A stretch of 64,000 bases of DNA from Candidatus Parcubacteria bacterium (GCA_026395595.1 JAPLYL010000008.1:56417-120416); one strand, 5' to 3'; numbered from the stretch's first letter, positions 11,433-30,627 are shown. A program made the numbers and translations. Notes: a model not told the origin generated them from the letters alone.

Positions 11433-11521
11433 CGGAGAGGTGGGTGAGCACGGTCGAAACCACCACACTGCTAACGTGGCAGGGGGTAAAACCCCTCGAG
11501 GGTTCGAATCCCTCCCTCTCC
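11433..11521 (+). tRNA. tRNA-Ser (anticodon GCU), class II with long variable arm
   Basis: Acceptor GGAGAGG/CCTCTCC with discriminator G. D stem GGT/ACC. Anticodon loop CTGCTAA. Variable arm GGGGGTAAAACCCC. T arm GAGGG-TTCGAAT-CCCTC. Confidence 0.85.
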
Positions 11522-11533
11522 GCAGTAAGTTTT

Positions 11534-11556
11534 TAGTATCGGAAGACCCGAGTGCC
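11534..11556. repeat. 23-bp direct repeat (copy 1) agtatcggaagacccgagtgcct, 13 bp after tRNA-Ser; putative island junction
   Basis: An exact second copy lies at 29682..29704. It contains the RACCCGAGTR core, which occurs at least 7 times in the window. It is embedded in a partial palindrome aagaccc...gggtctt. Confidence 0.7.
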
Positions 11557-11592
11557 TTGATATTCAAGGGTCTTTTGAATCACTGGAATCTC

Positions 11593-11628
11593 AAAAAGTT
11601 CGAACCTTTATGGGGTTCGAACTTTTTG
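11593..11628 (-). terminator. Terminator hairpin after the 1098-aa helicase gene
   Basis: Perfect palindrome aaaaagttcgaacc-tttatgg-ggttcgaacttttt. Confidence 0.6.
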
Positions 11629-11641
11629 TTACTTCGGACTA

Positions 11642-14938: not shown

Positions 14939-15002
14939 TTTTGGGTGACGTGAGATAAGATTTAGATTTCATCACCACCACATTTTATCACTTTTGCAAG
15001 AT

Positions 15003-16328
15003 CTACGCTATTGTCACCACCCCCTTCGTAACTTTAATTTTTGACTTAAAACACCCCATCAATTCTCTCTTCTCTTCGTTCGTCCCTTCTCGGAGAATAT
15101 ATTGGGCGTACGTTTTTGAATCTATTTCCTTGTAGGTTTCTTTTGGGTTTGTCATTCCGAGCACCTTTCTTTGAAATTTGTTCATTCGTTTTAATTCCTC
15201 ATCAAATTTATGTTTGATGCCGAGATTATTGAAGTCTATTTGATCCAGTACTTTTAAAAGTTGTTCAACTAATTCTTCTTCTCGAAGGTACTGACATTTG
15301 CAGTGCCTGTCTTTTGACCTTCCGCATCCATAGTAAATGTATTTTGCGGTCGTTCCATCTTTGAGTACTTTATATTTCTCTTCGGCTGAAATTCCTGATC
15401 CACACAATCCACAGACCATAAGTTTTGTAAAAGCGAATTCTTTGCTTTGTCGATGAATATCATCTCGTTTCAACTGTTCTTGAACTTTATCAAAAAGTTC
15501 TTTTTCAATGATCGGTTCATGTTTTCCGGTATACCAGTTTCCGGACTTTTTCGGGTATTCAAAAACTCCGTAATAAAACGGATTCGATAATGCCCGGTAA
15601 ATATTTCCAAGAGCGACATTATGATTTCCTACCGATTTAAAATTGAGTTCAAATTTTAACCATTGATGAATTTTTCGCCCCGACCATTTTTCATAAGCGA
15701 CTTTTTCATACATTTTTTTAACAATAGGAGCCCTGTCTGGATCTATGGTAACTTGGCATTTTCTATCAATTCTTTTTTCGTTCAAATATCCAAGCGGAGC
15801 GATTCCCGGCCACAGCCCCATTTCAACCCTCGTCCGAAGCCCGCGCTTTACGTTTATTCCGCGATTGTCATTTTCAAGCTTTGCCTGAGATCCAAGAATC
15901 ATCAACAAGAATTTTTCGTTTGGATTATTCCGGAAGCTTTGGCTGAATGTTCGAATCTCTACCAGTTTTCCTGCATCCATCAAGTCTACGATTTTTCCGA
16001 GATCTCCCGCATTACGACTGATACGATCCGGCGCCCATGTCAGAATCCCAGTAAACTTCCCGGCACGTAATTCTTCAACAATCTCATTAAATACAGGCCG
16101 TTGTCCAGTTTCCTTCGCCGAGTGCGATTCGCGCTTCATTGTTACGACCTCTAACCCTTCCCGATCCGCCAGTTGGAGCATTTCCTTAATCTGGCTGTCT
16201 ATTGAAAGCACCTGTCTTTCCTCTGATTCGGTACTCTTTCTCGCATAAAGGCAGTATTTTACCGCCGTTGGAACCTCTATTTTAGCCCTGGTTCCCGCTG
16301 GCATTTGCATTGTTTCCATATGTCTCAT
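15003..16328 (-). CDS. Large serine recombinase (resolvase catalytic domain + recombinase domain + zinc ribbon)
   Basis: YARKSTESEERQ...SIDSQ catalytic Ser region. LTWAPDRISRN. GLWPGIAPLGY recombinase domain. CGLCGSG...YYGCG zinc ribbon. Confidence 0.9.
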   Translation of the reverse strand: MRHMETMQMPAGTRAKIEVPTAVKYCLYARKSTESEERQVLSIDSQIKEMLQLADREGLEVVTMKRESHSAKETGQRPVFNEIVEELRAGKFTGILTWAPDRISRNAGDLGKIVDLMDAGKLVEIRTFSQSFRNNPNEKFLLMILGSQAKLENDNRGINVKRGLRTRVEMGLWPGIAPLGYLNEKRIDRKCQVTIDPDRAPIVKKMYEKVAYEKWSGRKIHQWLKFELNFKSVGNHNVALGNIYRALSNPFYYGVFEYPKKSGNWYTGKHEPIIEKELFDKVQEQLKRDDIHRQSKEFAFTKLMVCGLCGSGISAEEKYKVLKDGTTAKYIYYGCGRSKDRHCKCQYLREEELVEQLLKVLDQIDFNNLGIKHKFDEELKRMNKFQRKVLGMTNPKETYKEIDSKTYAQYILREGTNEEKRELMGCFKSKIKVTKGVVTIA

Positions 16329-16447
16329 TAATGACGCAACCCTCCTAAGGAGTCCAGAGCGACCCGAGTAGGTAACTTTTGCACAAAATATCCGTTTTAC
16401 TTTAATGAAAATTAAGTGTAAACTTATGTTAAGTTAACACTTTTGCT

Positions 16448-16633
16448 ATGACTACATCAAACACGGGAGATATCATTACGCTTAAGGAGGCATGCGAACT
16501 GCTGAACTGTCATCCGAATACCCTGCGAAAATGGGATAACTCCGGTTTCTTGAAAGCGATCCGTTTTGGTGCACGGCGCGACCGGCGGTATCATCGTGCC
16601 GATATTGAGAAATTAATTTCCCAAAAAACATAA
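16448..16633 (+). CDS. Small HTH DNA-binding protein (excisionase/MerR-like HTH_17); candidate RDF or controller
   Basis: ITLKEACELLNCHPNTLRKWDNSG helix-turn-helix. Length is 61 aa. It is the first gene of the MTase operon and lies next to the recombinase. Confidence 0.6.
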   Translation: MTTSNTGDIITLKEACELLNCHPNTLRKWDNSGFLKAIRFGARRDRRYHRADIEKLISQKT

Positions 16634-16635
16634 TT

Positions 16636-17751
16636 ATGAAAGATAAAGTTTCAAACGCCAGCCTTCATGGGGCAAAAAAAGCAAAGAAAGATGAGTTTTA
16701 TACTCAGCTTGTTGATATTGAAAAAGAATTGAAACATTATAAAGATCAGTTTCGTGGCAAGGTGGTATATTGCAACTGTGATGATCCATTTGAAAGTAAT
16801 TTTTTTAAGTATTTTGCCGCTAATTTCAATGCTCTCGGGTTGAAAAAACTTATCGCCACGAGTTACAAGCCATCCCCCATAGCCAATACACAACTGGGAC
16901 TATTTGGCGTAGATAAAGTACTTGCTTCACCAAAAGGACGCCCCAAAGTAACCGCTAACAAATTTATTATCAATGAGGTTAGTGACATAGACGGCGACGG
17001 TGCATTTGATTTACGTGACGTTGCCGAGCAACTTAAGGCTAATAAAAACAATGAGTGGGCCCCATTAGAAGATGAAGGAGATTTTAGAAGTAAAGAAAGC
17101 ATAGAACTGCTAAAGCAGGCTGATATTGTCGTAACTAACCCGCCATTTTCGTTATTTCGGGAATATATTGCACAGATTGTAGAATACGACAAAAAGTTTT
17201 TAATTATCGGCAATATAAATGCGGTTACTTATCAGGAATGTTTTAGACTTGTTCAAAATGATAGAATGTGGCTCGGGGCAAGTATTCATAGCGGTGATCG
17301 TGAATTTCGCGTTCCGAATGATTACCCGCTTGAAGCCGCGGGTTGTAGAGTGGACGAGAGCGGTAATAAATATATCCGCGTCAAAGGTGTCCGTTGGTTT
17401 ACGAATTTGGATTATAAAGAACGTCATGAAGATTTAGTATTGTACAAAAAATACACACCAGAAGAGTATCCTTTATACGACAATTATAGTGCAATTAATG
17501 TTGATAAGACGGCCGATATTCCAATGAGTTACGTTGGGGAGATGGGTGTTCCGATTACATTTCTTGATAAATACAATCCTGATCAATTTAAAATTGTAGG
17601 TGCTCTAATATCTGGCCCACTTGGGCATGAATTGGGAGCAACTAAAACGCAACAGATTAGACCGAACGGAAAGACAACATTGGAATACGGACCAATTATC
17701 AACAAAAAAGGATATTATGGAAGAATTGTTATTAAAAACAAGAAAATATGA
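16636..17751 (+). CDS. N6-adenine DNA methyltransferase (NPPF motif; EcoRI-methylase-family-like)
   Basis: Motif IV VVTNPPF and an upstream CNCDDPFESNFF motif I-like region. The stop overlaps the next gene's start (ATGA). Confidence 0.65.
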   Translation: MKDKVSNASLHGAKKAKKDEFYTQLVDIEKELKHYKDQFRGKVVYCNCDDPFESNFFKYFAANFNALGLKKLIATSYKPSPIANTQLGLFGVDKVLASPKGRPKVTANKFIINEVSDIDGDGAFDLRDVAEQLKANKNNEWAPLEDEGDFRSKESIELLKQADIVVTNPPFSLFREYIAQIVEYDKKFLIIGNINAVTYQECFRLVQNDRMWLGASIHSGDREFRVPNDYPLEAAGCRVDESGNKYIRVKGVRWFTNLDYKERHEDLVLYKKYTPEEYPLYDNYSAINVDKTADIPMSYVGEMGVPITFLDKYNPDQFKIVGALISGPLGHELGATKTQQIRPNGKTTLEYGPIINKKGYYGRIVIKNKKI

Positions 17752-18854
17752 AAATTGAACTAAACAGAATTAAAATACGCGAAGTAATAGAAGAATACAA
17801 AGACAGCGCCGAGGAGGGTGTTGTGGCTTACGGTGGCAAACTTGATGTTCGTCCAAAATATCAGCGTGAGTTCGTCTACAAAGACAAGCAGCGAGATGCG
17901 GTTCTTGATACTATCAAAAAAGGATTCCCACTCAACGTCTTGTACTGGATGGTGCGTGAAGATGGCGGTTATGAACTACTCGATGGACAACAGCGAACGA
18001 TTAGCATTGGTCAGTATATCAGCGGTGACTTTTCGCTAGATGACCGTTATTTTCACAATCTCACAAAAGAAGAACAAGAGCAGATATTGAATTACGAATT
18101 GATGATTTATTTCTGCGAAGGTACAGATAAAGAAAGACTGGGCTGGTTCAAAACTATCAATATCGCGGGTGAAAAATTAACAGATCAGGAATTACGCAAC
18201 GCCGTTTACACTGGCCCGTGGCTTTCTGACGCAAAACTAAAATTCAGTAAATCAAATTGCGCCGGATACCTTTTGGCAAATGACGGTGGCACATTACTCA
18301 CCGGTTCGCCGATCCGGCAAGAATATCTGGAAACCGCACTTTCTTGGATCAATGATGACGAAGTGGCGGGCTATATGGCAAAACACCAGCACGACAAAAA
18401 CGCAAATGAATTGTGGGAGTATTTCCAAAATGTCATTGCTTGGGTACGAAAAACATTCACAAACTATCGCAAAGAAATGGCTCATGTAAACTGGGGCGAA
18501 TTGTACAACGAATTTAAAGATAAGAAGTTGGATTCAAAAAAGTTGGAAGCTGAAATCTTTAAATTGATGCAAGACGAGGACGTAACGAAAAAATCCGGTA
18601 TCTATCCTTATGTTCTCACAAAGCAAGAAAAACATCTTTCCATACGTGCATTCAACGATAAAATGAAACGCGAAGCATACGAGCGACAGGAAGGAATTTG
18701 TCCGCATTGCAAAGGAGAGAATAAGAAAAAGAAATGGGAAATTGAAGAAATGGAAGCCGATCACGTCACCCCATGGCACGAAGGTGGTAAAACGACCGCG
18801 GAAAATTGTCAGATGTTGTGTAAAGAAGATAATCGACGGAAATCGGGGAAATAA
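17748..18854 (+). CDS. DUF262 (ParB/Srx-like DGQQR NTPase) fused to C-terminal HNH endonuclease; GmrSD/BrxU-like
   Basis: DGQQRT motif in the N-terminal domain. C-terminal CPHCKG...ADHVTPWHEGG...NCQMLCKEDNRRK is the HNH signature. Translationally coupled to the MTase. Confidence 0.75.
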   Translation: MKIELNRIKIREVIEEYKDSAEEGVVAYGGKLDVRPKYQREFVYKDKQRDAVLDTIKKGFPLNVLYWMVREDGGYELLDGQQRTISIGQYISGDFSLDDRYFHNLTKEEQEQILNYELMIYFCEGTDKERLGWFKTINIAGEKLTDQELRNAVYTGPWLSDAKLKFSKSNCAGYLLANDGGTLLTGSPIRQEYLETALSWINDDEVAGYMAKHQHDKNANELWEYFQNVIAWVRKTFTNYRKEMAHVNWGELYNEFKDKKLDSKKLEAEIFKLMQDEDVTKKSGIYPYVLTKQEKHLSIRAFNDKMKREAYERQEGICPHCKGENKKKKWEIEEMEADHVTPWHEGGKTTAENCQMLCKEDNRRKSGK

Positions 18855-18857
18855 GCC

Positions 18858-21059
18858 ATGATTAATAAAATTCTAAAAATCGAAGGACTAGGAAAGTTTA
18901 AGAAGTTTTCCAATACAGGAAACGACGATTTGAAATTCTTGAAATACACTGTTATTTTCGGTTACAACACATACGGAAAAAGTACTCTGACAACCATTTT
19001 TAGATCTCTTAAAGATTCCGATCAAAAACGCCTGAATGGAAAGAAAAGTTTTGGATTCATTGGAAATCTTGCCATCGATATATTGGATGAGACTGGTCAA
19101 CACCTAACACTTGCAAACGGCAAATGGAGCAATCCTAATATAGCTATTTTTGATAATTATTTCACCCATAGCTCTGTTTTTGTTGGAGATGAAATAGGTC
19201 ACAAACACAAGTCATCTTTGTATGGAGTTTTTGTCGGGGAGGATATCAGACAACAAATTTCTAAGTTAAAAGAACTGCGGGGTGAGCAAGATGCCTTAGA
19301 AAAAGAGCGTGACAAAATTAAGTCTGAATACACAAAAGGGTATCTTGGAACTTTCGATGCCTTTCTTGGAAAGGAAGCGGTTGATGGAGTTGAAGAGAAA
19401 AAAGAAACTAAAAAGAAAGAAATTCAAAGGATAAAGAACTCCGTTTCGCTTAAACAACTTATTGCGAGCTCTCCATTTGCAAGTAAGTTCGAGAAATTTT
19501 CGGCATCAATGCAAAAAACACTTGATACCTCAGCTGAAACGAATATCGAAAATCATGTAAAATCTCATTGGAAAGATGTTACAGCCTCCAAAAATTTTCT
19601 GGCCGCAGGCGTTGATTTATTGAAAGACGGTACGAACACTTGTGTTTTCTGTGGGCAGGGCCTCACGCCCGTGGTAAATCTTATCAAAGACTTCAAAAAT
19701 GTTTTTGGGGCTACCTACAAAGAAACACAGCAGGAAATAGAAAAAATTGGCGAGGCGTTCTTGCGATTTGATGTAGAAGCTGAAATGGCAAAATTCACTC
19801 CGCTCGGGGTTATCTGCGAAGAAATATACAACAAGGATGTTTTGTTAAAAAATAAAAATATCCTCGACGAAGATGTTCGCAAAAAACTTAAGAATTTAAA
19901 TTACGCAATTGATGTTACTTCAGCTATAAGCCCCTTCAAATCTTTTGTTGCGGAAATAGTAAAATTACATCCAACTTTTGAGATGCTTAAGACTCAGGAG
20001 TTTTCTACTATAAAACAAACCGCATTGGAAAACGAACTGAAACAATTAGAACTCGCACAATATCGCCACGGGGAGGAAGGTGTCGCTCTTGCTCAAAAAT
20101 TTACCAAGGCCATTATAGCCGTTGAAACCAAAAAAACAGAAATCGATACTCTACGAAAAAAGATTGACGAAGCAACCAAAGATACTATTGGAAAAAACCA
20201 GAAGCAAGTTAATACAATACTTACGGATGTATTAAAGGCGGATTTCACAATCCAAAAAATGAGCGGTCAATCAAATTTAACCAGAGCTAATGCTCACTCT
20301 ATAGATTATGAATTCGTTATAAACGAAAATATCGTTCCCATATCCAATAAACACTTACAGACTGATGAGGAGCCATTAGACAAACCATATTTCGGAAATA
20401 CACTTAGCGATAGTGATAGAAGATTGCTCGCACTCGCGTTCTTCATTGCCAGCTTGCAAACGGATAGTAATCTGAAAGACAAGATAATTGTTTTAGATGA
20501 TCCATTTTCTAGCTTTGATTCAAATAGAAAAGATTATTTGGCGAGAATGATTATTGATATCCAGAACGAGAAAAAGGAACGACCGGGACAAATAATCGTT
20601 ATGACACACGACGATGGGTTTCTTGGTCGACTCCAATCAAAATTACCGTCATCTGACACGAAAGTACTTAAGATTAAAAACTCCGTTGCCGATGGCTCAG
20701 TTTTAGACAAATGTGATGTTGATGAAATTATCGAGGAAGAATATTTCAAAAACATAAAGCACATCAAAGAGGCAGCAGATAAAACAAGGGATGTAGATAG
20801 TGCCCTGAAACGGGTTCGTCCATGTCTTGAGCGAGTTTTACGACATAAGTACTATTTTTGTCTTGATAAAGAAACACTTGAGAGCGGAAGCATAACCTCT
20901 TATCTTGAAAAAATTGATAAAAAGTGCGTGATAAAAGATGAAATACTGAAAAGTGGTTGGCACGAACACATGCACGATGAACACGAGATTATGAAATTAT
21001 TGGAGCCGGAAAAAGTTCAAAAATTGAAGGATTTTCTTGTTCTCCTTGAAAAAATATAG
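18858..21059 (+). CDS. Rad50/SMC-like ABC ATPase with coiled-coil insert carrying a CxxC zinc-hook motif; PrrC/RloC-like or Septu PtuA-like candidate
   Basis: Walker A GYNTYGKST near the N-terminus. About 450-aa coiled-coil region containing CVFCGQGLT (compare Rad50 hook CPVCGR). Walker B IIVLDDPFSSFD, H-loop VMTHD, and an about 170-aa C-terminal tail (RPCLERVLRH...WHEHMHDEH). Confidence 0.65.
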   Translation: MINKILKIEGLGKFKKFSNTGNDDLKFLKYTVIFGYNTYGKSTLTTIFRSLKDSDQKRLNGKKSFGFIGNLAIDILDETGQHLTLANGKWSNPNIAIFDNYFTHSSVFVGDEIGHKHKSSLYGVFVGEDIRQQISKLKELRGEQDALEKERDKIKSEYTKGYLGTFDAFLGKEAVDGVEEKKETKKKEIQRIKNSVSLKQLIASSPFASKFEKFSASMQKTLDTSAETNIENHVKSHWKDVTASKNFLAAGVDLLKDGTNTCVFCGQGLTPVVNLIKDFKNVFGATYKETQQEIEKIGEAFLRFDVEAEMAKFTPLGVICEEIYNKDVLLKNKNILDEDVRKKLKNLNYAIDVTSAISPFKSFVAEIVKLHPTFEMLKTQEFSTIKQTALENELKQLELAQYRHGEEGVALAQKFTKAIIAVETKKTEIDTLRKKIDEATKDTIGKNQKQVNTILTDVLKADFTIQKMSGQSNLTRANAHSIDYEFVINENIVPISNKHLQTDEEPLDKPYFGNTLSDSDRRLLALAFFIASLQTDSNLKDKIIVLDDPFSSFDSNRKDYLARMIIDIQNEKKERPGQIIVMTHDDGFLGRLQSKLPSSDTKVLKIKNSVADGSVLDKCDVDEIIEEEYFKNIKHIKEAADKTRDVDSALKRVRPCLERVLRHKYYFCLDKETLESGSITSYLEKIDKKCVIKDEILKSGWHEHMHDEHEIMKLLEPEKVQKLKDFLVLLEKI

Positions 21060-21127
21060 GGCTGTAAGTGGTAATAGGTGAATCAAACAAAAAGGAACTC
21101 ATTAAGTTACTTTGTCTTCGTTGAAAC

Positions 21128-21140
21128 GGGGGGGGGGGGG
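21128..21140. repeat. Homopolymeric G13 tract in convergent intergenic region
   Basis: 13 consecutive G in an AT-rich genome. Possible slipped-strand site or assembly artefact. Confidence 0.6.
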
Positions 21141-21175
21141 CGAATATCGTGGAAAATTATGCATTGAAAATTGTC

Positions 21176-24040
21176 TTAGGGACACGCCAAACATGCTTTT
21201 GCAAGATCTTCAAGCTCTTTGAAGATTGTTTCCGCTTCTACTCGCTCAGGAGTTACCCCTTCAGGTAAGGAGTTTATAAATATTGGAGAATCCAACAACT
21301 GATCCTCAAGCATTACTGCAATTCCAACATCGGTTCTTTTCCTAATAAGTCTTCCGAAGCCCTGCTTAAAAAGCATTACGGCGAGTGGCTGATAGTAGTT
21401 TTTGAAACCATCTAACCTCTTGTTGTCCAATTCCTTACAACGAGCCTGTATAATGGGAAGGTTTGGGTTTCTATAGGGCGTTTTGTAGATAAAAAGAGAT
21501 CTTAGAGAATTACCTGGGACATCAACCCCCTGCCATAAAGTTTCTGTACCGATCAACACTGAATTTGTGTCACTGGAAAAATCTCTGATTACAGAAGTAC
21601 AAGATTGCCCCCTCGATTGTTTCAGTAGCCAAAGATTCTTTTTTGATAATGGACGAACCAGTTTTTCATAAATCTTGTTTACCTGGTCAAAACTCGTACA
21701 GAGAATAAGTGCCCCTCCGTTACTTGCGATAATCGCTTTTTCTAAAAAATCAACACTTTCGTTAAAATGACGGTCGCCCTTCATTGTCTTGAACGAAATG
21801 CCTTTCGGAAGGAAAAATTTGGCTTGTTTATCGTAATCAAATGAAGAGGAAAAGATGTACCCTTTTACGTTTCCTTTTTCTATAAGTCCCAACCCGCAGC
21901 GACTCGAAAAAAAGTTAAATTTTTTATCAATTGTTAGTGTCGCGGATGTCAGTACCACAGAGGAATAATTTTGATAGACTTTTTCGTTCAATTCTTTAGC
22001 GACAGACAGTAAAGATCCTTTTATCTCAACGCCCGAGTTGGTTCTTTCTAAGTATTTAATATATGCGGGGCTGGTGTTTATAAAAACAATGACTGTATCA
22101 ATTATTTGTTTTACCGTACGTATACGGATAGTTAATATTTTTTGTTGTTGCTCGTTCTTTGTTTCTTTTGCAAAAACTTCCATTATACTTTGGATACTTG
22201 CGAGACGGTCTCGAATCTGAATCAAAATACCCTGAAGAGCAGTTAATCCATCCTTGTTCATTTCTGAAAAAAGACTGTACTGAGAGTAACCTTTGTCGTT
22301 CGGTTTTGAAACAAGTTTTGGCGTAATCTCGTCAAACAAAGAGGTAATATCAAGATTAAGATTGGATTCTACCTCAAAAAAAGAATCCGACAAAGACGAC
22401 AACCTATTCTCATTTTTTTGTTTTGCGATATTTTCTATTATGTTAGCAACGCCTTTCCTTTTTCCTTTTCCAAACAAATGTTGCTCAAGTAAAATAAAAC
22501 GATCTTTAGAGAGAATTTGTTCCCATGCGGAAGTGGCATCTTCTTCAAGGTGATGAGCTTCGTCAAATACTATGTATTTTGCTTCTCCAGGAAATACGGT
22601 GTGTGAAAAACTAACGGCATGTTTTTGTGCGGAATTTTCTTCATCAACAAAATCGTTTTCTTTTTCTTCGGCTGGAACAATCCCAGACAACATAATCGCG
22701 TGATTCACAACCACAAGGTCTGCGTCTCTTGCGCGAAGTTTTGCTTTTGCGAGAAAACACTTTCCCTCACCAAACAAATCGCAAACTCCTTGTGTGCAAA
22801 GCTCGTCAGTATTGCATACATCGTGTTCGATCTTCTTTGGCATTCGTTCTGTAAGCCAATAAGGTAGTTCTCCCCAGTCTCCACGTGTAGTCTCTAAAAC
22901 CCAAGAAGAAAGAAGAATTCCTGATAGCGGGCGAGTAAACCTAATTCCATCTCTTTTGAATTCATATAAAGAACGCTGTGTACCTTCTGCTATTATTTCC
23001 TCTATGAATTCACTAAATTTTGATAAACAAACATAATTCTTTTTTCCCTTCAAGACGGCAACGTGTAATTCTTTTCCCATTAGTTCACATAGGTGGGGAA
23101 TTTCTTTAAATGCGAGCTGGTCTTGCAGAGCTTTTGTATGGGTTGAAATTATAACTGGTATATTATTTTCAAGCGCAAAAAGGACGGAAGGGGCTAAATA
23201 TGCTTTTGATTTTCCCGTTCCTGTACCGGCTTCAATAACCGCGTGTTTTTTATTATTAAAGGAGAATGCAATTGCCGCAGCCATTTTCTTTTGTTCTGGA
23301 CGAGCCTCCGAATAGTTGCCGGATTTATCAATCGCTGGATCAAAATATTTTTCTACATCCTCTATTTTTATTTCCTTGTTGGCCTTAAACCCAAGAGTGT
23401 TTTGCCCCACGGGTTTTCTATATGACTGAAACGGTTCGACTAAATGTGAAATATCTATGATATCCTCTGACCTAGCAGGTAGAAAATCTTTCCACCACCA
23501 ATTTACTCGTTCAGACAAGTAACGAAGCGCTGATCTGTGCTTTAACGGTTTTCTTACATATAGTGCTTGTAGGTTTTTTATAATCTCAAATTCACTTTCG
23601 CAATCCTGAAGAGCGCGATGCCTGACCGATTCTAATTTGAAATATTCTGAAAGTGCTGTAGTCGAATGCCCAAATGGATTTGTCGGCAAGATAAAAAATG
23701 CGAATTCAAGAGAATCTTGCTTGTCATCGAATTTAAGACCCTCTCGTTCCAGTATCGGAAAATCGAAAGAAAATCCATTATGAGAAACTACGGTATATCC
23801 TTTAATAAATTCTCTTGTTTGTTTAATTACTTCTTCAATTGTTGGTGCGTTGCAAACATCTTTTTCTGTAATTCCAGTAATTCGTTTTATTGTTTCTGGG
23901 ATTTCATCAGAATAACGCACAAAAGTAGACCATCTTTTTAAAACAGTATTTCCTGAAACCAAAATAGCACCGACTTCAAGGACAGAGGAAAATTCACGAT
24001 CTAAACCCGTTGTTTCAATATCCAGTATGACGTATTTCAT
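21176..24040 (-). CDS. dinG: DinG-family (Rad3-like) helicase with N-terminal DEDD 3'-5' exonuclease domain
   Basis: N-terminal ILDIETTGLD exonuclease motif I. Helicase motif I AGTGTGKS and motif II FDEAHH. Length is 954 aa. Confidence 0.8.
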   Translation of the reverse strand: MKYVILDIETTGLDREFSSVLEVGAILVSGNTVLKRWSTFVRYSDEIPETIKRITGITEKDVCNAPTIEEVIKQTREFIKGYTVVSHNGFSFDFPILEREGLKFDDKQDSLEFAFFILPTNPFGHSTTALSEYFKLESVRHRALQDCESEFEIIKNLQALYVRKPLKHRSALRYLSERVNWWWKDFLPARSEDIIDISHLVEPFQSYRKPVGQNTLGFKANKEIKIEDVEKYFDPAIDKSGNYSEARPEQKKMAAAIAFSFNNKKHAVIEAGTGTGKSKAYLAPSVLFALENNIPVIISTHTKALQDQLAFKEIPHLCELMGKELHVAVLKGKKNYVCLSKFSEFIEEIIAEGTQRSLYEFKRDGIRFTRPLSGILLSSWVLETTRGDWGELPYWLTERMPKKIEHDVCNTDELCTQGVCDLFGEGKCFLAKAKLRARDADLVVVNHAIMLSGIVPAEEKENDFVDEENSAQKHAVSFSHTVFPGEAKYIVFDEAHHLEEDATSAWEQILSKDRFILLEQHLFGKGKRKGVANIIENIAKQKNENRLSSLSDSFFEVESNLNLDITSLFDEITPKLVSKPNDKGYSQYSLFSEMNKDGLTALQGILIQIRDRLASIQSIMEVFAKETKNEQQQKILTIRIRTVKQIIDTVIVFINTSPAYIKYLERTNSGVEIKGSLLSVAKELNEKVYQNYSSVVLTSATLTIDKKFNFFSSRCGLGLIEKGNVKGYIFSSSFDYDKQAKFFLPKGISFKTMKGDRHFNESVDFLEKAIIASNGGALILCTSFDQVNKIYEKLVRPLSKKNLWLLKQSRGQSCTSVIRDFSSDTNSVLIGTETLWQGVDVPGNSLRSLFIYKTPYRNPNLPIIQARCKELDNKRLDGFKNYYQPLAVMLFKQGFGRLIRKRTDVGIAVMLEDQLLDSPIFINSLPEGVTPERVEAETIFKELEDLAKACLACP

Positions 24041-24194
24041 GATAGGTGATTCAAAAGTATCACACTATAAGCAATGCGTCAAAAAAGTTTTCTATTTAGA
24101 TCCGACAAAACTTGTTGATAACCACCCCTTCGCAACCGCTTCTTTTTAAGCTAAGGTACATGGACTAATAGTACTTTTTGCGCTATTATGTTCA

Positions 24195-24426
24195 TTGACA
24201 ACTGAATATTCTGGTCGGAAGACCAGGTACCTAACCCCGAAAGATTTTCTTTCGGATATGGTACGGAATCCCATGGAAGACACTGAACCCTGCGTTCAGC
24301 GACTCTTCCATGGGTCATATCGGGAAACTGGTATGGGACCGAAAGGTCTAGCTGGCGCAGGGTTCAGTGTACCCACTGTTTCTCTCGCCAGCTACTTAAT
24401 AGCTGGTTTTTATTCTCTCTAATAAT
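24195..24426 (+). promoter_or_regulatory. GC-rich highly structured leader ending in terminator hairpin directly upstream of ORF 24427 (riboswitch/attenuator or sRNA candidate, class unknown)
   Basis: Nested palindromes ccatggaaga...tcttccatgg and ctgaaccctgcg...cgcagggttcag. Terminal ccagcta-cttaat-agctgg plus TTTTT sits 10 nt before the ATG. The 75-aa ORF here is not credible. Confidence 0.4.
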
Positions 24427-25173
24427 ATGCCCTTCAAAGAGTACATAAGTAATCACCCCGATCTTGTTCGGGAACGAATTCATAATTTTTTAGGATACGG
24501 AAATCTCTTAGGCGACATTTGGTTCGTCGGAATGGAAGAAGGAGGCAATGAGACGCCAGAAATTCTGCTGTCTCGTTTTCTCGCCACCTCGCAAGGGAAA
24601 ATGTTCGACATTTATGATGATATGCGCGAACATCCGGATCATATGCGTTGGTTCAAAGAAAATGCACCAACGCAGGCGACATATCGAAAACTTATTTATC
24701 TTTTACTGTTCCTCCGTTTGGGAAAAGAGCCTTCCCTCGGAGACATTCGCGAGTATCAAATAAAGAGCTTCGGAAGAAAATCGTCCGATCACGCGGTTTT
24801 GGAACTCATGCCGTTACCGTCAAAAACAATAGACAAAAAAGACTGGAGATATGGTGATCTCGGTATCGAAGAACTTTCTTCTCGGAAAAAGTATCTTACC
24901 GAATTCAAATCCGACCGTGTGGAACTTTTCCGATCGCTCGTTGAAGATCACAAGCCGAAGCTTGTAATCTTTTATTCTCTTGGATATATCAAAGACTGGC
25001 AGAAAATTGCTGAAACGCCTTTTACGGAAATAATTCCGAAAAAACTATTAATCGCGCAAAGAGACGGAACCACCTTCGTTGTGGTTCCGCACTCTGTCGC
25101 GAGAGGACACTCAGATGAATCATGGAGATCTATCGTCGAAGGCATTATATCTGCTCATCCGTTTTCTTCATAG
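24427..25173 (+). CDS. Hypothetical protein (248 aa), no recognisable domain
   Basis: Clean ORF preceded by the structured leader. No motifs recognised. Confidence 0.5.
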   Translation: MPFKEYISNHPDLVRERIHNFLGYGNLLGDIWFVGMEEGGNETPEILLSRFLATSQGKMFDIYDDMREHPDHMRWFKENAPTQATYRKLIYLLLFLRLGKEPSLGDIREYQIKSFGRKSSDHAVLELMPLPSKTIDKKDWRYGDLGIEELSSRKKYLTEFKSDRVELFRSLVEDHKPKLVIFYSLGYIKDWQKIAETPFTEIIPKKLLIAQRDGTTFVVVPHSVARGHSDESWRSIVEGIISAHPFSS

Positions 25174-25540
25174 GTACCGTATAAATATTTAACTTGGTAA
25201 TCGGAGGAACGAACTCGCTATCGGGCGTTTTCTGATTCTTTGTTTGGTAGTCCGGATGGCATCTCTCGAGTTGGAATTTCACGGCTTGCATATTGTTCTG
25301 CTGGATATTTTGGATAAGATGCGTATGAGCAAGATCATTCACGAAGCTTTTTCCAAGGTTGATAGCATTATCCGCCTTAAGAGCAAATGGCCGTTCCTCT
25401 TTCCATGTGTAGAAAGTTTCTCGACTAATACCGGCTCGTTTGCAGGAATACCATATATTTCCCGAATCGCGGAGAAATTCAAGTACTTTTTCTTGCATTC
25501 TATGAGTCCTCTCTTTCACGTCTGATGATTTTTTCGCCAT
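25145..25540 (-). CDS. Phage terminase-small-subunit-like HTH protein
   Basis: SCKRAGISRETFYTWKEE resembles TerS/insertion-element HTH. It is adjacent to the ParB-MTase as in phage packaging modules. The true start may be the internal Met (MQEKV...) abutting the MTase stop. Confidence 0.5.
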   Translation of the reverse strand: MAKKSSDVKERTHRMQEKVLEFLRDSGNIWYSCKRAGISRETFYTWKEERPFALKADNAINLGKSFVNDLAHTHLIQNIQQNNMQAVKFQLERCHPDYQTKNQKTPDSEFVPPITKLNIYTVPMKKTDEQI

Positions 25541-26288
25541 GTCCGGTAAGTTTTTTCCAGCGTTCCACTATCGTCGCGCAATATTCAGGTTCGATTTCGA
25601 CCATAACGCAACGTCTCTTCGTCTGCTCGCACGCAATAAGCGTTGAGCCACTACCGCCGAAGGGATCGTATACGCAATCGTTCACACTGGTGCTGTTAAG
25701 AATGATTTTCCTCAAAATCCCGATCGGTTTCATCGTCGGATGAAGTTTGCTTCGGGACGGTTTCGGAGCGAAGATGACTGATTTGTCTTTTCCTCTTTCG
25801 AATTTATGCGTTCCTTTCCAACCGTAAAGGATGAGTTCGTGCTGGGGAAGGTAATCGAGCCGTCCGATGATTGCTCGGTCTTTTACCCAAATAATCAGCT
25901 GGGATACTTTCACGCCAAGGTCTACGAACGCTTGCCTGAGGGAGAAAATCATCTTGTCACAATTGAAGACGTAAATGCTATTCTTTTTTGAGAGGTGCGG
26001 AAGAATATTTTTCAGCCATCCTTTCGTGAAATCGGCATACTCCTCGTCGCTCATAAGCCCATCGTTTTCAATATCTTTGTCGACAGAAATTTCTTGCATT
26101 CCTCGCTTGCTCGCAACGTAATCAATCGCATACGGCGGATCTGTCAGAATCAAATCGATTGTACCTTTCAGAATCTCGCGGAGAGGAACCGTCTTTGCCT
26201 CTCCGCAAACGAGAATGTGATCGCCGAGAGTGATAATGTTGCCTTTCTTAATCGAGTTGCTTCGCTTTGTGTCCGGTGAATTTTTCAT
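25500..26288 (-). CDS. DNA methyltransferase (N6/N4 beta-class, DPPY motif)
   Basis: ILTDPPY motif IV precedes C-terminal FDPFGGSGSTLIACE motif I, which is the beta-class order. Length is 262 aa. Confidence 0.85.
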   Translation of the reverse strand: MKNSPDTKRSNSIKKGNIITLGDHILVCGEAKTVPLREILKGTIDLILTDPPYAIDYVASKRGMQEISVDKDIENDGLMSDEEYADFTKGWLKNILPHLSKKNSIYVFNCDKMIFSLRQAFVDLGVKVSQLIIWVKDRAIIGRLDYLPQHELILYGWKGTHKFERGKDKSVIFAPKPSRSKLHPTMKPIGILRKIILNSTSVNDCVYDPFGGSGSTLIACEQTKRRCVMVEIEPEYCATIVERWKKLTGHGEKIIRREREDS

Positions 26289-27522
26289 ATCGGTTGATGA
26301 TGAGCTGGCAAAAGATAGGGCTTTTTTCGACCAAGAATGCCCGGCGTTTCATTTGTTCGCAAGCGAGAAGTGTGGAACCGCTTCCTCCGAATAGATCAAG
26401 TACGTTATCGCCGATTTTTGTGCATCGGTTTAGAGGTCGCTCATGAAGAGAAAGCGGTTTCTGTGTCGGATGTTCGTACTCGTCACCCGAAATGCGTTTC
26501 GCGAGCCAGATGTCGATCATGTCGGTGATATCGTCGATTGTTGCGTTTCCGATTCCAATGTCTTTGTTAAGAATCTCCGCGAATTTCGTGTGCTTTGGCG
26601 AAAGATAGGGTTTTCCGGTCGTTCCGTAAACGCAGGGTTCATAAAGCTTAGAGAACGCTACCTGAGGTGTCACATTGATTCCGTTTTTAACCCAGAGTGC
26701 CGTGCGTTTGTATCCGATACCTAGTTCTTCGAAAAGCATTTGAAGCATGCCGACATATTTTTGATCGCAGTACCAGAAGTGGTGGGCGTTTTCCGCACTT
26801 ACGGAAAGGGCGCTTGTCATCGCTTTGCGGAGAAACTCGCGATATTCGACATCGGTCTTCTTGTCGTCGACATCTCCGCCGTAATTCGCCTTTCCGCCAA
26901 GACCTTTATTGTAGTCGAGCGAGATATTGTAAGGCGGATCGGAATAAGCCATATCAATTTTGTGATTTCCGACAAGACGTTTCGCGACCGCTTTGTCCGT
27001 ACTATCTCCGCAGATAAGGAAGTGATCGCCGAGAGAGAAGAGATTTCCTTCTTTGATGTCCGTTTTCTTCGCTTCTTCCATTTCCTTCTTCTCATCGAAA
27101 TCGTCATCTTCAATTTCGAGAACATCGTCCCAAATGTTCGAAAGGTCGGTATCGTCAAAGCCGATGTCGAGAAGAAATTCAGTATCGAACGCTTTCAGTA
27201 GGTCGTAATCCCACGAGCCGGTGTTCTTGTTGCTTCGGAGAAGGTACTCTTCACATTCCTTCGTCGTGAGCTTCCGATTCGGAACGCGGACGTCGATTTC
27301 TTCTTTTCCGCGACCGAGTGCTTGCATAATTCGGAGGCGGGCGTGTCCCGCCAAAATGCCGTTGTCTGTATTGATGGCCGGGATTTCGACCAAGTTATAT
27401 CTATTAATACTTGTTTCGAGGTCTTTCCGCTCTTTATCGGAAATCTTCCTCGGATTCTTGGCGTGCGGGATGAGATCATCGATCTTTCTCGTTTCCGTAC
27501 TCCAGACTAATGCTTTTTGCAT
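26248..27522 (-). CDS. ParB-like nuclease domain fused to DNA methyltransferase (phage-type orphan MTase)
   Basis: N-terminal ParB/Srx-like region (NPRKISDKE...EIPAIN...GHARL), then SDPPYNI and LDLFGGSGSTLLACE. Confidence 0.85.
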   Translation of the reverse strand: MQKALVWSTETRKIDDLIPHAKNPRKISDKERKDLETSINRYNLVEIPAINTDNGILAGHARLRIMQALGRGKEEIDVRVPNRKLTTKECEEYLLRSNKNTGSWDYDLLKAFDTEFLLDIGFDDTDLSNIWDDVLEIEDDDFDEKKEMEEAKKTDIKEGNLFSLGDHFLICGDSTDKAVAKRLVGNHKIDMAYSDPPYNISLDYNKGLGGKANYGGDVDDKKTDVEYREFLRKAMTSALSVSAENAHHFWYCDQKYVGMLQMLFEELGIGYKRTALWVKNGINVTPQVAFSKLYEPCVYGTTGKPYLSPKHTKFAEILNKDIGIGNATIDDITDMIDIWLAKRISGDEYEHPTQKPLSLHERPLNRCTKIGDNVLDLFGGSGSTLLACEQMKRRAFLVEKSPIFCQLIINRYEKFTGHKAKQLD

Positions 27523-27925
27523 ATTGGTTTATATGCTATCTAATACTTAGAGACTCGTGATCTTGTCGAAAGAATCGCAAATCTCGCAGCTTTTTCTTAA
27601 CGCTATCTTAATTATATCAGGCGCATATTTTTGCCTCGTATTTTTTCGCAAGATTATGTAAAAAAGTCATATTTTAAGGTGTATTATTCGTTTCAAAACT
27701 ATTAATTTTCGCGTTCAAAACGCATTAAAAACACCTCAAAAATTGAATTTCTTTTGATTTTTTTTAAGGCGAAAAACGGTGTTCAAACCACCCCGAAAAG
27801 GCGAAATACTTCCATATATCGCCATGTATTTCGGTAAACTGCTGAATACCGTAGAGTGTGTCAGATTTGTAAGGTAGCCGACTCGCGTGCTGGAAGATTA
27901 AAATCATGCTAATATTGCTTTACTT

Positions 27926-28558
27926 ATGGAAAACATTTGGATTTCAATCGCTCTTTCGTTGTTAACCGGTGTGGTTTCCAGTTCCTTGGTTGTTTTGTAT
28001 TTTGAGCTACGACACCAAAAAATGCACGCCCTTTCACGCGCGCATATTCTTGAACGATTTTCTCGAGAGCTATTTCATATACTCACAGCGGTCAGGATTG
28101 CTTCTAATCTCAAATTAAAAAACACAGCAACAAGCAAAGCCGAAATGGTTAAAGAATTGGAACAAATTTTGGGAAGAAATACCCTTACGATTCTTCTGGG
28201 GAGAATTTCTAATCTGTCTCCCAAACAACACCAAGTCTTACTCAACGAGCTGATTTTAGCCCACTCCTCTTTGTCTGTTTTATTTTCTCAGTCCATAGGC
28301 CATAAAACACTGGAAGATCGCATTGCGGCATCAATGGCGGAAACACAAGAGTGGATTGATTCCGTTTTAATTTACTACACTACGTATCCTGAAATTATTG
28401 ACGGGACAGCTGATCAGACAATCCACATGGTTTGGATGACAAGCGTTTTTAACCTTGTCGAAAATTCCTTTGCGATTCTCAATGACGTAGTAAAGGCTCA
28501 AACATTATCTGAGGGGGCATTACGTTGGGGCAGTCGTAGTTCAAAACACGGTTCTTAA
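27926..28558 (+). CDS. Hypothetical protein with N-terminal TM helix
   Basis: ORF of 210 aa with a hydrophobic N-terminus. No motifs. Confidence 0.45.
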   Translation: MENIWISIALSLLTGVVSSSLVVLYFELRHQKMHALSRAHILERFSRELFHILTAVRIASNLKLKNTATSKAEMVKELEQILGRNTLTILLGRISNLSPKQHQVLLNELILAHSSLSVLFSQSIGHKTLEDRIAASMAETQEWIDSVLIYYTTYPEIIDGTADQTIHMVWMTSVFNLVENSFAILNDVVKAQTLSEGALRWGSRSSKHGS

Positions 28559-28571
28559 TAAACTGTATATT

Positions 28572-29543
28572 ATGTTTTGCACAAACTGCGGAAACAAAAC
28601 ATATGCGGAAGATAACTTCTGCGGAAATTGCGGTAAAGCGAACAAGCGTACCAGTGTTTCAGGTGTTGAAAAACCATCTCCTAAAATAGAACCAAGACCG
28701 AGATCTCCAGCGTGTAAAGAACCAGAATATACACCGCCACCTATCCAACCTACTCGTAGTATTAAAGGTGAAGCAAGGGACGAAAAGAAAAAACAGGAAC
28801 GCAAAGAAGAATTGAGAAAGTTATTAGAGAGAGAGCGAGGACGAGAAATTTCCGATCAGGAACTCTTTGATGCAGAACTTTGGCTCACCAACTACGCCAA
28901 TCTGATGTATGACTTTGCCAAAACAGATTTTCAGAGAAAAACAAAGTTAGAAGAAAATCCAAAAGGTTTCCCTCTTGAAGGAAAAGGATATACCTGCGGC
29001 ATCTGTCACAACTCTATCTCAGACGAACAGACATGGTATGACCAAAACGGTCTCAAATGTTTAACCTGCCAGGATGCGTTAGATAAAAATATCATTCCGG
29101 TTTCAGTTATTATTGATCGTGAAAGTTGGTATTCAGTAAGTGATTTTGAAAGTAGTTTCTTTATGAAGCCAAATGCGGTGAGGAGATTCGTAAAAGAGGG
29201 TCTGTTAAAACCACGAATCATTTCAAATGCCTCAGGAAAAACTCACTTCCAATTATTTCTTATCGAAGAGCATGAAGGTATCTTGCCTCCTAAAGAAGTG
29301 ACGAAATGGCCAATGGTTAAATTTAAGAAAAATGGCAAAGTCTACTATCATTCAGAACCGTGGTTTATGCATAAAGATCCTAAAGAAGCTCTGGGAAGTT
29401 ACAAGATATCGGAGTACATGGCGACCCTGAAAGAGAACGAGATAAAGCAGTCATATCCTGATCTAAGCTTTGAAATGCACCTGGGATCAGAGTCTATATT
29501 AAAGATTGATTATATTGATGAAAAGCCAGAAAGTGCCGAGTAG
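28572..29543 (+). CDS. Zinc-ribbon domain protein (two CxxC...CxxC modules), hypothetical
   Basis: N-terminal CTNCGN...CGNCG, then a charged/Pro-rich linker, then CGICHN...CLTCQ. Confidence 0.5.
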   Translation: MFCTNCGNKTYAEDNFCGNCGKANKRTSVSGVEKPSPKIEPRPRSPACKEPEYTPPPIQPTRSIKGEARDEKKKQERKEELRKLLERERGREISDQELFDAELWLTNYANLMYDFAKTDFQRKTKLEENPKGFPLEGKGYTCGICHNSISDEQTWYDQNGLKCLTCQDALDKNIIPVSVIIDRESWYSVSDFESSFFMKPNAVRRFVKEGLLKPRIISNASGKTHFQLFLIEEHEGILPPKEVTKWPMVKFKKNGKVYYHSEPWFMHKDPKEALGSYKISEYMATLKENEIKQSYPDLSFEMHLGSESILKIDYIDEKPESAE

Positions 29544-29574
29544 CGTCTCTTTTGTCTCATTTTCAAAAAAATGA

Positions 29575-29704
29575 GTATAGTGACCCGAGTGCCTCGACAT
29601 CACAGCCAAAAGTGCGCTAAAATACCCTTACTGGGCTTAGACTCGCTGGTACTTAACCCGAGTGGCCCGCCATAAGAAAGAAGTATCGGAAGACCCGAGT
29701 GCCT
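29575..29704. repeat. Cluster of three RACCCGAGTR motif copies including 51-bp cassette repeat (copy 1) and 23-bp direct repeat (copy 2)
   Basis: gtgacccgagtgcc at about 29581. aataccctta...gtacttaacccgagtggcccgcc at 29621..29671. agtatcggaagacccgagtgcct at 29682..29704, identical to 11534..11556. Confidence 0.7.
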
Positions 29705-29709
29705 AAAAT

Positions 29710-30243
29710 ATGCAAAAGAAACAAACCACAATTATATTATTTCGAGGTCGCCCAGGCGTTGGAAAAAGCACTATTTCTAACGCATTCGCGAAAAAGGAGA
29801 ATATGCCGGTTCTTAGAAAGGACGATATTTATGATGCCGCCGCAACCTATGTAGAAGACCATGGGATACGAAACAAGATCAGTTACGATTCGCTGTTCAA
29901 GATGCTTGAGTCTAATATATCCTCAGAAACCTCTCTAATTCTTGATTACCCTTTCCAAAGGGACGAAGAGGTCTTAAACCTTCAGAGGTGGTGTAAAGAG
30001 CGAAATTTGCAACTCGTTTCGGTATTGGTGGTTTGTTCTGATCGAGAAATTTGGAAAAGTCGTTTTAATGTTCGTTCACAAAATCCAACGCCAAACCAAC
30101 TCATTACAGATTTAGATGAATTGGAGCGACACTATGGTGATTTAATTCTAAAACCCCTCGAAGATGAAATTGTCATTGACACTGTTGAATCCATCGAAAT
30201 CATCCTAAAACAGTTGGCGACCCGAGTACCCCGGGAGGGCTAG
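29710..30243 (+). CDS. Small P-loop kinase / AAA_33-like NTPase (zeta-toxin/gluconate-kinase fold class)
   Basis: Walker A ILFRGRPGVGKST. Length is 177 aa. Flanked by about 51-bp direct repeats. Confidence 0.6.
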   Translation: MQKKQTTIILFRGRPGVGKSTISNAFAKKENMPVLRKDDIYDAAATYVEDHGIRNKISYDSLFKMLESNISSETSLILDYPFQRDEEVLNLQRWCKERNLQLVSVLVVCSDREIWKSRFNVRSQNPTPNQLITDLDELERHYGDLILKPLEDEIVIDTVESIEIILKQLATRVPREG

Positions 30244-30257
30244 AGAAAAAACTTTGA

Positions 30258-30309
30258 AATACCCTTATGGTGTCTTGTCCGCCATAGTACTTAACCCGAG
30301 TGGCCCGCC
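30258..30309. repeat. Cassette direct repeat copy 2 (aataccctta...gtacttaacccgagtggcccgcc)
   Basis: The 23-bp 3' part is identical to 29649..29671 and the 5' aataccctta is shared. The middle diverges. Confidence 0.65.
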
Positions 30310-30314
30310 CGTAC

Positions 30315-30342
30315 AAAAAATAGCCCCGAGGGGCATTTTTTG
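30315..30342 (+). terminator. Terminator after kinase cassette
   Basis: gccccg-a-ggggc hairpin preceded by an A-run and followed by a T-run. Confidence 0.55.
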
Positions 30343-30540
30343 TTGGGAAGAGAGGAGCGAGTGCCCTGCGGCACTCGCGCGAGGGATTCGAAGAGGTTGA
30401 GTCTGTCGCAACGAGCCGAGGTCGGCGAAGTGAGACACGAAACCTATACCGCTCCTGTAAGGAGAGAAATTCCCTCCCTCTCCGTCAGCCCACACACCAA
30501 TGACGAATGTGTGACTCGGCTACCTCATAAATTGTAAATA
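30343..30540 (+). other. GC-rich structured non-coding segment containing a tRNA-Ser 3'-end-like stretch (tccctccctctccg); candidate attachment-site remnant or unclassified ncRNA
   Basis: Perfect hairpin gcgagtgcc-ctgc-ggcactcgc. cgagggattcgaa resembles the tRNA-Ser T-arm. A 14-nt exact match to the tRNA-Ser 3' end sits at about 30469..30482. Hairpin cacacac...gtgtgtg. ORFs on both strands are implausible. Confidence 0.35.
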
Positions 30541-30627
30541 AAAACAACGACTTTTTCGGTCGCTGTTTTTATTTTTATAAAAATCGGTTCTTCAATAAAG
30601 TCAATTTTTGAGATATAATAAGAACCT

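Follow-up and report, generated by a model that had tools for sequence, protein, structure and literature searches.

Within the 64,000-nt stretch of Candidatus Parcubacteria DNA analysed here (the window, from whose first letter all coordinates are counted), a 177-aa open reading frame (ORF) for a P-loop kinase lies between two imperfect copies of a repeat of about 50 nt, referred to below as the element. Both copies (51 and 52 nt long, starting at 29621 and 30258) open with AATACCCTTA, diverge over a middle portion of 18 or 19 nt, and close with the same 23-nt sequence, GTACTTAACCCGAGTGGCCCGCC, which occurs exactly twice in the window (29649-29671 and 30287-30309) against a chance expectation of 0. 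An original prediction made from the DNA sequence had pointed out this repeat pair and its identical last 23 bp, and both are confirmed. It had also placed the kinase ORF together with its terminator between the repeats; the ORF is indeed bracketed, but the terminator-like hairpin sits after the second copy.

Each element forms part of a longer unit that is marked by a short core sequence. The octamer ACCCGAGT was already known to occur in both repeats and at the 3' end of the ORF (30220), and four further copies that had been overlooked are found at 29583, 29693, 11546 and 16362. All seven lie on the plus strand, whereas 0.9 would be expected in the window. The copy at 29693 is 17 nt before the kinase ATG, that at 11546 is 23 nt after a tRNA-Ser gene, and that at 16362 is 34 nt upstream of the start of a serine recombinase gene. 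The upstream core of each unit, called core 1, corresponds to a conserved block at -67 to -52 in a profile anchored on the elements, and the core-to-core spacing of 73 or 74 nt is common to unit 1, unit 2 and a third unit at locus L013 (L-numbers denote the other loci compared).

The two units differ in what surrounds them. Copy 1 aligns with tRNA-Ser 3' halves, and its variable middle is similar to the elements at the island ends of L007 and L023. It is followed by a sequence that we call the trailer, with which it forms the dyad GGTACTTA/AAGTATC, and a promoter predicted from the sequence would read through element and trailer into the kinase gene. A second trailer directly follows the tRNA-Ser gene, and its last 23 nt are identical to 29683-29705, just before the kinase. 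Copy 2 is retained downstream of kinase homologues in L001, L005, L007, L008, L011 and L012. The features of the locus are collected in Table 1.

Table 1. Features of the window that bear on the repeated units, with proposed roles where these have been assigned
Feature	Position	Strand	Remarks
tRNA-Ser(GCT), intact	11434..11523	+	ARAGORN; Rfam tRNA 50.5 bits; proposed array anchor (left half of original attB)
Trailer AGTAAGTTTTTAGTATCGGAAGACCCGAGTGCCT (core 11545-11556)	11524..11558	+	proposed element-derived right arm at the island's left junction
Inserted island, ~18 kb	11559..29581	.	Pfam and PADLOC
Large serine recombinase, 441 aa	15003..16328	-	Resolvase PF00239, Recombinase PF07508, Zn_ribbon_recom PF13408, all above cut-offs
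Recombinase-proximal block TGTCTCATTAATGACGCA-N-GAGTCCAGAGC-GACCCGAGT	16321..16369	+	next to recombinase start
Tandem 9-10-nt motif (CGTCTCTTTTGTCTCATTTT)	29544..29566	+	right end of island
Core 1 of unit 1 (GACCCGAGTGCCTC)	29582..29595	+	73 nt upstream of the element's internal core
Sigma-70-like promoter TCGACA-18-TAAAAT	29594..29623	+	10/12 positions match
Element copy 1	29621..29671	+	pseudo-tRNA-Ser 3' end; proposed left att half, belonging to the island on the left
Trailer ATAAGAAAGAAGTATCGGAAGACCCGAGTGCCT	29672..29705	+	proposed left end of kinase cassette
P-loop kinase ORF, 177 aa	29710..30243	+	cassette cargo; final codons cross core 1 of unit 2
Core 1 of unit 2 (GACCCGAGTACCCC)	30219..30232	+	inside kinase ORF, 74 nt upstream of element 2 core
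Element copy 2	30258..30309	+	without promoter; proposed right end of kinase cassette
Intrinsic-terminator-like hairpin	30313..30343	+	inverted repeat; proposed native sequence downstream of tRNA-Ser
~150-nt structured tRNA-Ser-mimicking RNA	30343..30492	+	native right-hand neighbour of the array; GC-rich; no Rfam hit

A family of units behind tRNA-Ser genes

The element is not confined to the window. A metagenome scan with the query GGTACTNAACNCNNNNNGCCCGC returned at least 120 stretches, and about 90 among the matches listed are true copies, located in AT-rich contigs resembling those of bacteria of the candidate phyla radiation (CPR). At these roughly 90 loci of Paceibacteria-like CPR bacteria, an element of about 50 nt ending in GGTACTTAACCnnnnnGCCCGC(C) is embedded in a conserved unit of about 90 nt that extends from -67 to +22 relative to GGTAC and comprises core 1 (ccGACCCAcaTGCCTcAAAat), a spacer, often an extended -10 sequence (TGnTAAAAT), and the element. 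Similarity between copies is limited to this interval and collapses directly after GCCCGC, giving the unit a sharp right edge. The orientation of the units is always the same, and there are often several on one contig; many contigs carry two copies separated by 0.5-3.4 kb, and copies are frequent at contig ends. A search of a viral collection (IMG/VR) gave 10 hits, 8 of which are chance matches and 2 true. No description of this unit was found in literature on CPR bacteria, serine recombinases, tRNA-Ser and cassettes.

All 16 tRNA genes located on the same strand as an element and no more than 1.5 kb upstream of it encode tRNA-Ser (isoacceptors GGA, TGA, GCT and CGA), and the trailer stands behind at least 16 of 29 tRNA-Ser genes versus about 0 of 54 genes for other tRNAs. 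The element itself ends like a tRNA-Ser, in ...CCGC(CA); it can be aligned with the 3' halves of tRNA-Ser, and the same trailer comes after it. Identity between element and tRNA-Ser is only 16/29 positions in the window and 19/28 when L007 is compared with L008, and alignments of this kind indicate that the element is probably a diverged tRNA-Ser mimic rather than a copy of the adjacent tRNA. Elements without a trailer often have a terminator behind them (22 of 91 elements), followed in several cases, the window included, by an RNA of about 150 nt, and the same context is seen after unoccupied tRNA-Ser genes, which lack a trailer.

Comparisons between loci are consistent with recombination junctions at this boundary. 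L007 and L008 encode one and the same kinase, and from CCGC/ATCAAG onward their sequences agree at 100% (a slash marks a junction here and below); the sequence upstream of this point is an element in L007 versus a genuine tRNA 3' end in L008. In two further pairs, L070/L142 and L124/L139, the similarity extends through the element and is lost beyond it. The variable middle of the element co-varies with the cargo on its left.

What lies between the units is heterogeneous. The ORFs include a Ser/Thr kinase, uridine-kinase-like proteins, a nucleotidyltransferase, a HAD hydrolase, a HIT protein, S-adenosylmethionine-dependent methyltransferases, a beta-lactamase-fold protein, SUKH-1 immunity and Bro-N proteins, and an HNH endonuclease, and many have no Pfam match. 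At L013, a different ORF of 206 aa is packaged exactly as the kinase is. The same repeat family brackets many unrelated genes in other assemblies, and the contexts of the kinase differ among relatives; the refutation that the original prediction had allowed for, repeats never found around other cargo and a core kinase gene with constant flanks, does not hold. The suggestion of a cassette-like unit is upheld to the extent that the repeats behave as its boundaries.

A single type of recombinase keeps company with the units. Homologues of the large serine recombinase of the window (36-78% identity) are present at 13 loci that had been selected by the element pattern and in both true IMG/VR hits, and unbiased clustering of 572 kb yielded this protein as the only recurrent recombinase. 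In the window it belongs to the island between the tRNA-Ser gene and unit 1, together with a ResIII helicase, a type II restriction-modification pair, PDC-S06/AAA_13, a DinG-DEDDh helicase, LOOT RNA, two DNA methylases (ParB-N/N6_N4) and a Zn-ribbon protein. The ParB-methylase and Zn-ribbon families also recur among element-containing loci. The original prediction had regarded the island's recombinase as the possible mover of the kinase cassette; its recurrent association with the repeats stands, whereas its action on these sites is something that we infer.

Proposed attachment sites and competing explanations

Taken together, these data are best accommodated if the units are tRNA-Ser-like attachment sites of a serine recombinase that mark the ends of accessory genes behind tRNA-Ser in CPR bacteria, a reading to which we assign a probability of roughly 0.55. 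The attachment site of the incoming DNA (attP) would consist of core 1, spacer and element, then the crossover, then the trailer, with the element-borne pseudo-tRNA-Ser end as one half; the chromosomal site (attB) would be the tRNA-Ser 3' end joined to its native terminator. Such an attP would serve a family of integrative elements as well as small recombinase-less cassettes in Paceibacteria-like CPR bacteria. The large serine recombinase would recombine it with the 3' end of the tRNA-Ser gene or with surrogate targets that have a tRNA-like 3' end, namely an earlier inserted element or the 150-nt RNA. Crossover would take place near the CC of ...CCGC, a position that would leave the tRNA intact. 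The product of each event would have the order tRNA or element / trailer - cargo - core 1 - element / old downstream sequence, and repeated events would therefore build arrays in a single orientation.

Applied to the window, this mechanism predicts a native locus composed of tRNA-Ser(GCT), the terminator and the 150-nt RNA, with an empty-site junction that would read tRNA-Ser ...CTCTCC/GCC followed by CGTACAAAAAATAG (11521 joined to about 30308). The kinase alone would constitute a recombinase-less cassette of 638 bp (about 29668-30305), distal to the tRNA and bounded by the two elements. The 18-kb defence island with its recombinase would then be a second insertion, proximal to the tRNA, and its terminal unit would supply the promoter that reads into the kinase. 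Arrays of this kind may still be mobile at present.

A number of points weigh against this explanation. Inverted arms, GGTACTTA and T(T/A)AGTATC, recur at a constant distance around a dyad centre that falls within GCCCGC, which is in its favour, but the excess over controls is modest: a score of 6/8 or higher is reached by 21 of 82 units, versus 4-16 in shuffled-target controls. Exact-protein look-ups with the kinase and both flanking chromosomal genes found no occupied-versus-empty pair for the window's own genome, and the sole other contig of that genome (L169; SRR20698640) is 100% identical to the window. Serine recombinases normally need sites of only about 40-50 bp, and a site of this size does not account for the conserved core 1, the tandem motif upstream of it or the fact that the core is directly repeated. 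Moreover, hybrid attL and attR sites are not usually reused by serine recombinases, and array building therefore requires promiscuity, which is known for Ccr recombinases. The co-variation between element and cargo was measured on 8 elements only, and about 73 of 86 element-containing loci show no recombinase, although most of these are short contigs. Finally, the kinase-plus-element arrangement is conserved across 62-82% protein identity, and for this reason the kinase cassette may have been immobile for a long time.

The strongest competitor, though an unlikely one, holds that the units are transcription or RNA elements. They would either serve accessory genes linked to tRNA-Ser as a conserved promoter with a 5' leader (plus a 3' element) or encode a small RNA, and the kinase would be a resident gene carrying the element in both untranslated regions. 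Unit 1 does have a sigma-70-like promoter, and an extended -10 sequence stands at one fixed position in about a third of the units, where it is correlated with a trailer and cargo downstream; terminators lie behind many elements, and the sharp 3' edge of the unit could equally be the 3' end of an RNA. However, the promoter is missing from two-thirds of the units. No conserved secondary structure or covariation beyond invariant GGU/ACC pairs was detected in 82 copies of the element with RNAalifold and an anchored, register-scanned pairing test, and the element was rejected as a structured RNA on these grounds; Rfam likewise gave no match in 29400-30700, even at E values up to 5. The specificity for tRNA-Ser, the varied cargo, the association with a recombinase and the junction pairs would all be left unexplained. 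A role in transcription is nevertheless compatible with the attachment-site model as an added function, not as a replacement.

It is rather improbable that the element is a repeat resembling miniature inverted-repeat transposable elements or repetitive extragenic palindromes, or the outcome of local duplication and homologous exchange, and that it was spread or homogenised without a dedicated site-specific recombinase. The element is certainly multi-copy, and it breaks assemblies because so many copies lie at contig ends; all five local cores are identical, which suggests homogenisation; this identity is a peculiarity of the window's lineage. However, neither terminal inverted repeats nor target duplications are found, and the copies have strictly one orientation and are tied to tRNA-Ser-like 3' ends. 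The presence of only two copies in 64 kb, both within the array, and conservation through genomes of 25-50% GC also speak against a dispersed repeat.

Still less credence is given to the idea that the short core GACCCGAGT is a crossover or target site duplicated on insertion, in which case cargo would be bounded by core repeats rather than by elements. The core does flank the kinase (29692 and 30219), and an ORF at L013 (ORF X) has GACCCGAGTG on both sides. If cores were insertion duplications, however, the left and right cores of a cassette should agree, and among 18 cassettes they match at 1.9 of 5 variable positions versus 2.0 after shuffling (P=0.78). This comparison and the different consensus sequences of trailer cores and core 1 led us to reject the candidate.

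The original prediction had likened the unit to an integron cassette bounded by attC sites, and same-orientation arrays, mostly single-gene cargo and ORFs running into the boundary unit are in keeping with this, but a true integron-type cassette, with a tyrosine integrase acting on folded single-stranded DNA, is extremely improbable: an attC-like hairpin is rejected by folding z-scores of -1.8, -0.3, -0.6 and +1.0 for both units and both strands, by the different folds of the two copies and by the lack of a shared hairpin or an inverted R''/R' pair; no GTT trinucleotide, and hence no GTTRRRY core, exists in 29621-29710, where ACTTAAC fits RYYYAAC but has no inverted partner; no tyrosine recombinase was found among the island proteins or the recurrent ORF families in 572 kb (not every ORF was scanned); and the units look like tRNA-Ser 3' ends and stand behind tRNA-Ser. 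The analogy thus fails at the level of mechanism.

Parallels with known systems

Several known systems share parts of this organization. Tycheposons integrate site-specifically next to tRNA genes in a streamlined genome and lie side by side with partial-tRNA copies between them, newer arrivals displacing older ones outward; many units are degenerate or carry cargo only, defence genes are among the cargo, and 910 of 937 tycheposon-type elements use tyrosine recombinases (bioRxiv 10.1101/2020.12.28.424599). The present arrays resemble these and Islander-type tDNA islands in their position beside a tRNA gene, their side-by-side elements, their cargo-only units and their defence genes, and, under the model proposed here, in the outward displacement of older units. 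They differ from tycheposons in that the recurrent recombinase is a large serine recombinase, not a tyrosine recombinase, and in that the partial tRNA is a diverged pseudo-tRNA end conserved throughout the family, not a duplicate of the neighbouring tRNA. Core 1, the tandem motif and the trailer are conserved modules that come in addition, and many units hold a single small gene.

The staphylococcal cassette chromosome (SCC) elements at rlmH offer another parallel. Their Ccr large serine recombinases insert DNA at the 3' end of a gene without inactivating it, and the elements accrete in tandem with attachment sequences repeated between them; recombinase-less pseudo-elements are presumably mobilised in trans. 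Shared with the units described here would be a large serine recombinase, insertion at the 3' end of a conserved gene that stays functional, tandem elements and recombinase-less units. The target, however, is a tRNA-Ser or tRNA-like 3' end rather than rlmH, and the hosts are CPR bacteria. The boundary unit, moreover, is tRNA-derived and about 90-130 nt long, whereas that of SCC is a repeat of about 15-20 nt.

With integron cassettes, the likeness is one of architecture: arrays have a single orientation, the cargo is compact, unrelated and mostly single-gene, ORF ends overlap the boundary site, the array has a recombinase gene at one end, and transcription can start from a promoter outside the cassette. 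In contrast to integrons, the arrays have no tyrosine integrase, attC hairpin or GTTRRRY core, are anchored at a tRNA gene, and include some units that carry a promoter. The distinct combination here is a serine recombinase and a family-wide pseudo-tRNA attachment unit, with frequent single-gene cargo, in CPR hosts.

CPR bacteria (Patescibacteria) have tiny genomes, and how they acquire genes is poorly understood. A wider proposal, which must be considered tentative, is that they possess an integron-like form of gene capture that is mechanistically unrelated to integrons. A serine recombinase would stack single- and multi-gene cassettes behind tRNA-Ser by means of a conserved pseudo-tRNA-Ser unit of about 130 nt, itself the next target and possibly a promoter carrier, and the 150-nt RNA would act as a surrogate target or a regulator. 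If this is true, it would be a main route by which CPR bacteria gain and shuffle accessory and defence genes, and single-gene cassettes would apparently be handled by a serine rather than a tyrosine recombinase. A conserved unit that is easy to search for would then mark arrays of unrelated cargo behind tRNA-Ser, tied to one family of serine recombinases. In metagenome-assembled genomes, which are fragmented and in which assemblies break at the unit, it would help in practice to find the limits of mobile DNA. The serine integrases, whose target would be defined and tRNA-like, might also prove useful as tools.

The kinase, the 150-nt RNA and other features

The identification of the 177-aa ORF as a Walker A kinase is supported by the motif GRPGVGKS and a Pfam AAA_33 match (E=8e-12). 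AAA_33 and AAA_18 are the only Pfam families matched, and a profile search against the PDB gave weak matches to 2rhm ('putative kinase') and to adenylate kinases (E 3e-6 or weaker). The protein thus shares the Walker A motif, the AAA_33 match and the weak 2rhm and adenylate kinase profiles with AAA_33/adenylate-kinase-like P-loop kinases, and the family in the window differs from these in having invariant residues of its own, such as RKDD, C109, W115 and R118/R122. No close characterised relative was found.

A zeta-toxin-like role in addiction or abortive infection had been proposed for this kinase, and it is unsupported. The Pfam search gave no match to the Zeta_toxin family, and the top PADLOC hit (VakA, 22.8 bits, E=2.8e-5) is marginal. 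No antitoxin or partner gene lies beside the kinase, both of whose flanks are non-coding units; the neighbours of its homologues are unrelated, and the homologues in Paenibacillus and Bacteroidota are solitary.

Homologues with 62-82% identity occur in Paceibacterota/Nomurabacteria, and the more distant ones are those of Paenibacillus and Bacteroidota. Gene neighbourhoods differ between relatives, and the C-terminal tail past LAT differs among homologues. Close homologues keep the non-coding layout, with an element of about 50 nt ending in GGTACTnAACCnnnnnGCCCGC(C) downstream and the trailer AGTATCGG...GAyCCnnnTGCCT upstream, preceded by another element or a tRNA. Separately, distant homologues (52-79% identity) start about 5-60 nt from tRNA 3' ends with neither element nor trailer; the tRNAs are Trp, Gln and Ser-GGA (L014 2734-2805, L015 4805-4878 and L004 9852-9939). 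This suggests that the kinase family and tRNA-proximal positions are linked more deeply.

The 150-nt RNA downstream of the array is well supported as a new structured RNA in its own right. Homologues are found at L010 (5825-5968), L011 (5830-5964), L037 (3956-4084 and 5855-5980), L152 (2513-2644), L127 (179-302) and L165 (4044-4167), and compensatory changes affect 19 of 26 predicted pairs in 8 sequences. In the structure model, GAGGGA and UCCCUC pair over a long range, one hairpin has 9 bp, and another, preceded by GUAC, has UGUAA as its conserved loop. The two ends of the RNA pair to give a stem resembling an acceptor, and the 3' end reproduces the T-stem and acceptor sequences of the tRNA immediately preceding the RNA. 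This tRNA is tRNA-Trp in L037 and tRNA-Ser(GCT) in L010, L011 and the window; in the window, 14 nt of the tRNA-Ser 3' end are repeated. The kinase cassette comes directly after the 150-nt RNA in L010 and L011. The first hairpin in the window (30352-30378, GAGCGAGTGCC-CTGC-GGCACTCGCGC) holds CGAGTGCC, the same 8 nt as the local core GACCCGAGTGCC, a match that may represent a coincidence or a relationship.

Three sequence patterns near the units deserve separate mention. Often 10-20 nt upstream of core 1 there is a tandem 9-10-nt motif (for example, TGTCTCATTTGTCTCATTT) at many loci, among them L070, L096, L131, L165, L073 and L079. Its halves vary together (GTCTCA/GTCTCA, TGGCA/TGGCA, GTCGCA/GTCGCA and GTAACA/GTAACA), and it follows the gene for the recurrent Zn-ribbon protein in the window and four other loci. 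Such a pattern resembles a site at which a dimeric protein specific to the element would bind. Secondly, at least 11 unrelated cargo ORFs cross core 1 in one frame (GAC-CCN) and acquire tails such as ...DPSAS, ...DPHAS or ...DPHTS (L013 756-776, L058 about 1894-1914, L104, L105, L112, L126, L142 and L152), and the kinases cross it in another frame (...ATRVP); this frame bias looks non-random. Thirdly, the block next to the recombinase start is conserved in L066, L007, L096 and L128 as AT(T/C)RATGACGCA-N12-14-GAGTCCAGAGC-core, and the window and L066 diverge directly past its core. The block could be an operator, or else a second recombination site or element junction within the island.

The island also holds a defence set (16636-24040) made up of an EcoRI-type methylase paired with a GmrSD/HNH 'REase_II', PDC-S06 (AAA_13) and a DEDDh-DinG helicase, a type linked with type IV CRISPR systems. 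LOOT RNA (RF03000) has two matches in the window, at 47151-47266 (+, 68 bits) and at 24228-24349 (+, 84 bits), the latter within the island, where it is flanked by the DinG-like helicase gene and a 248-aa ORF that matches no Pfam family.

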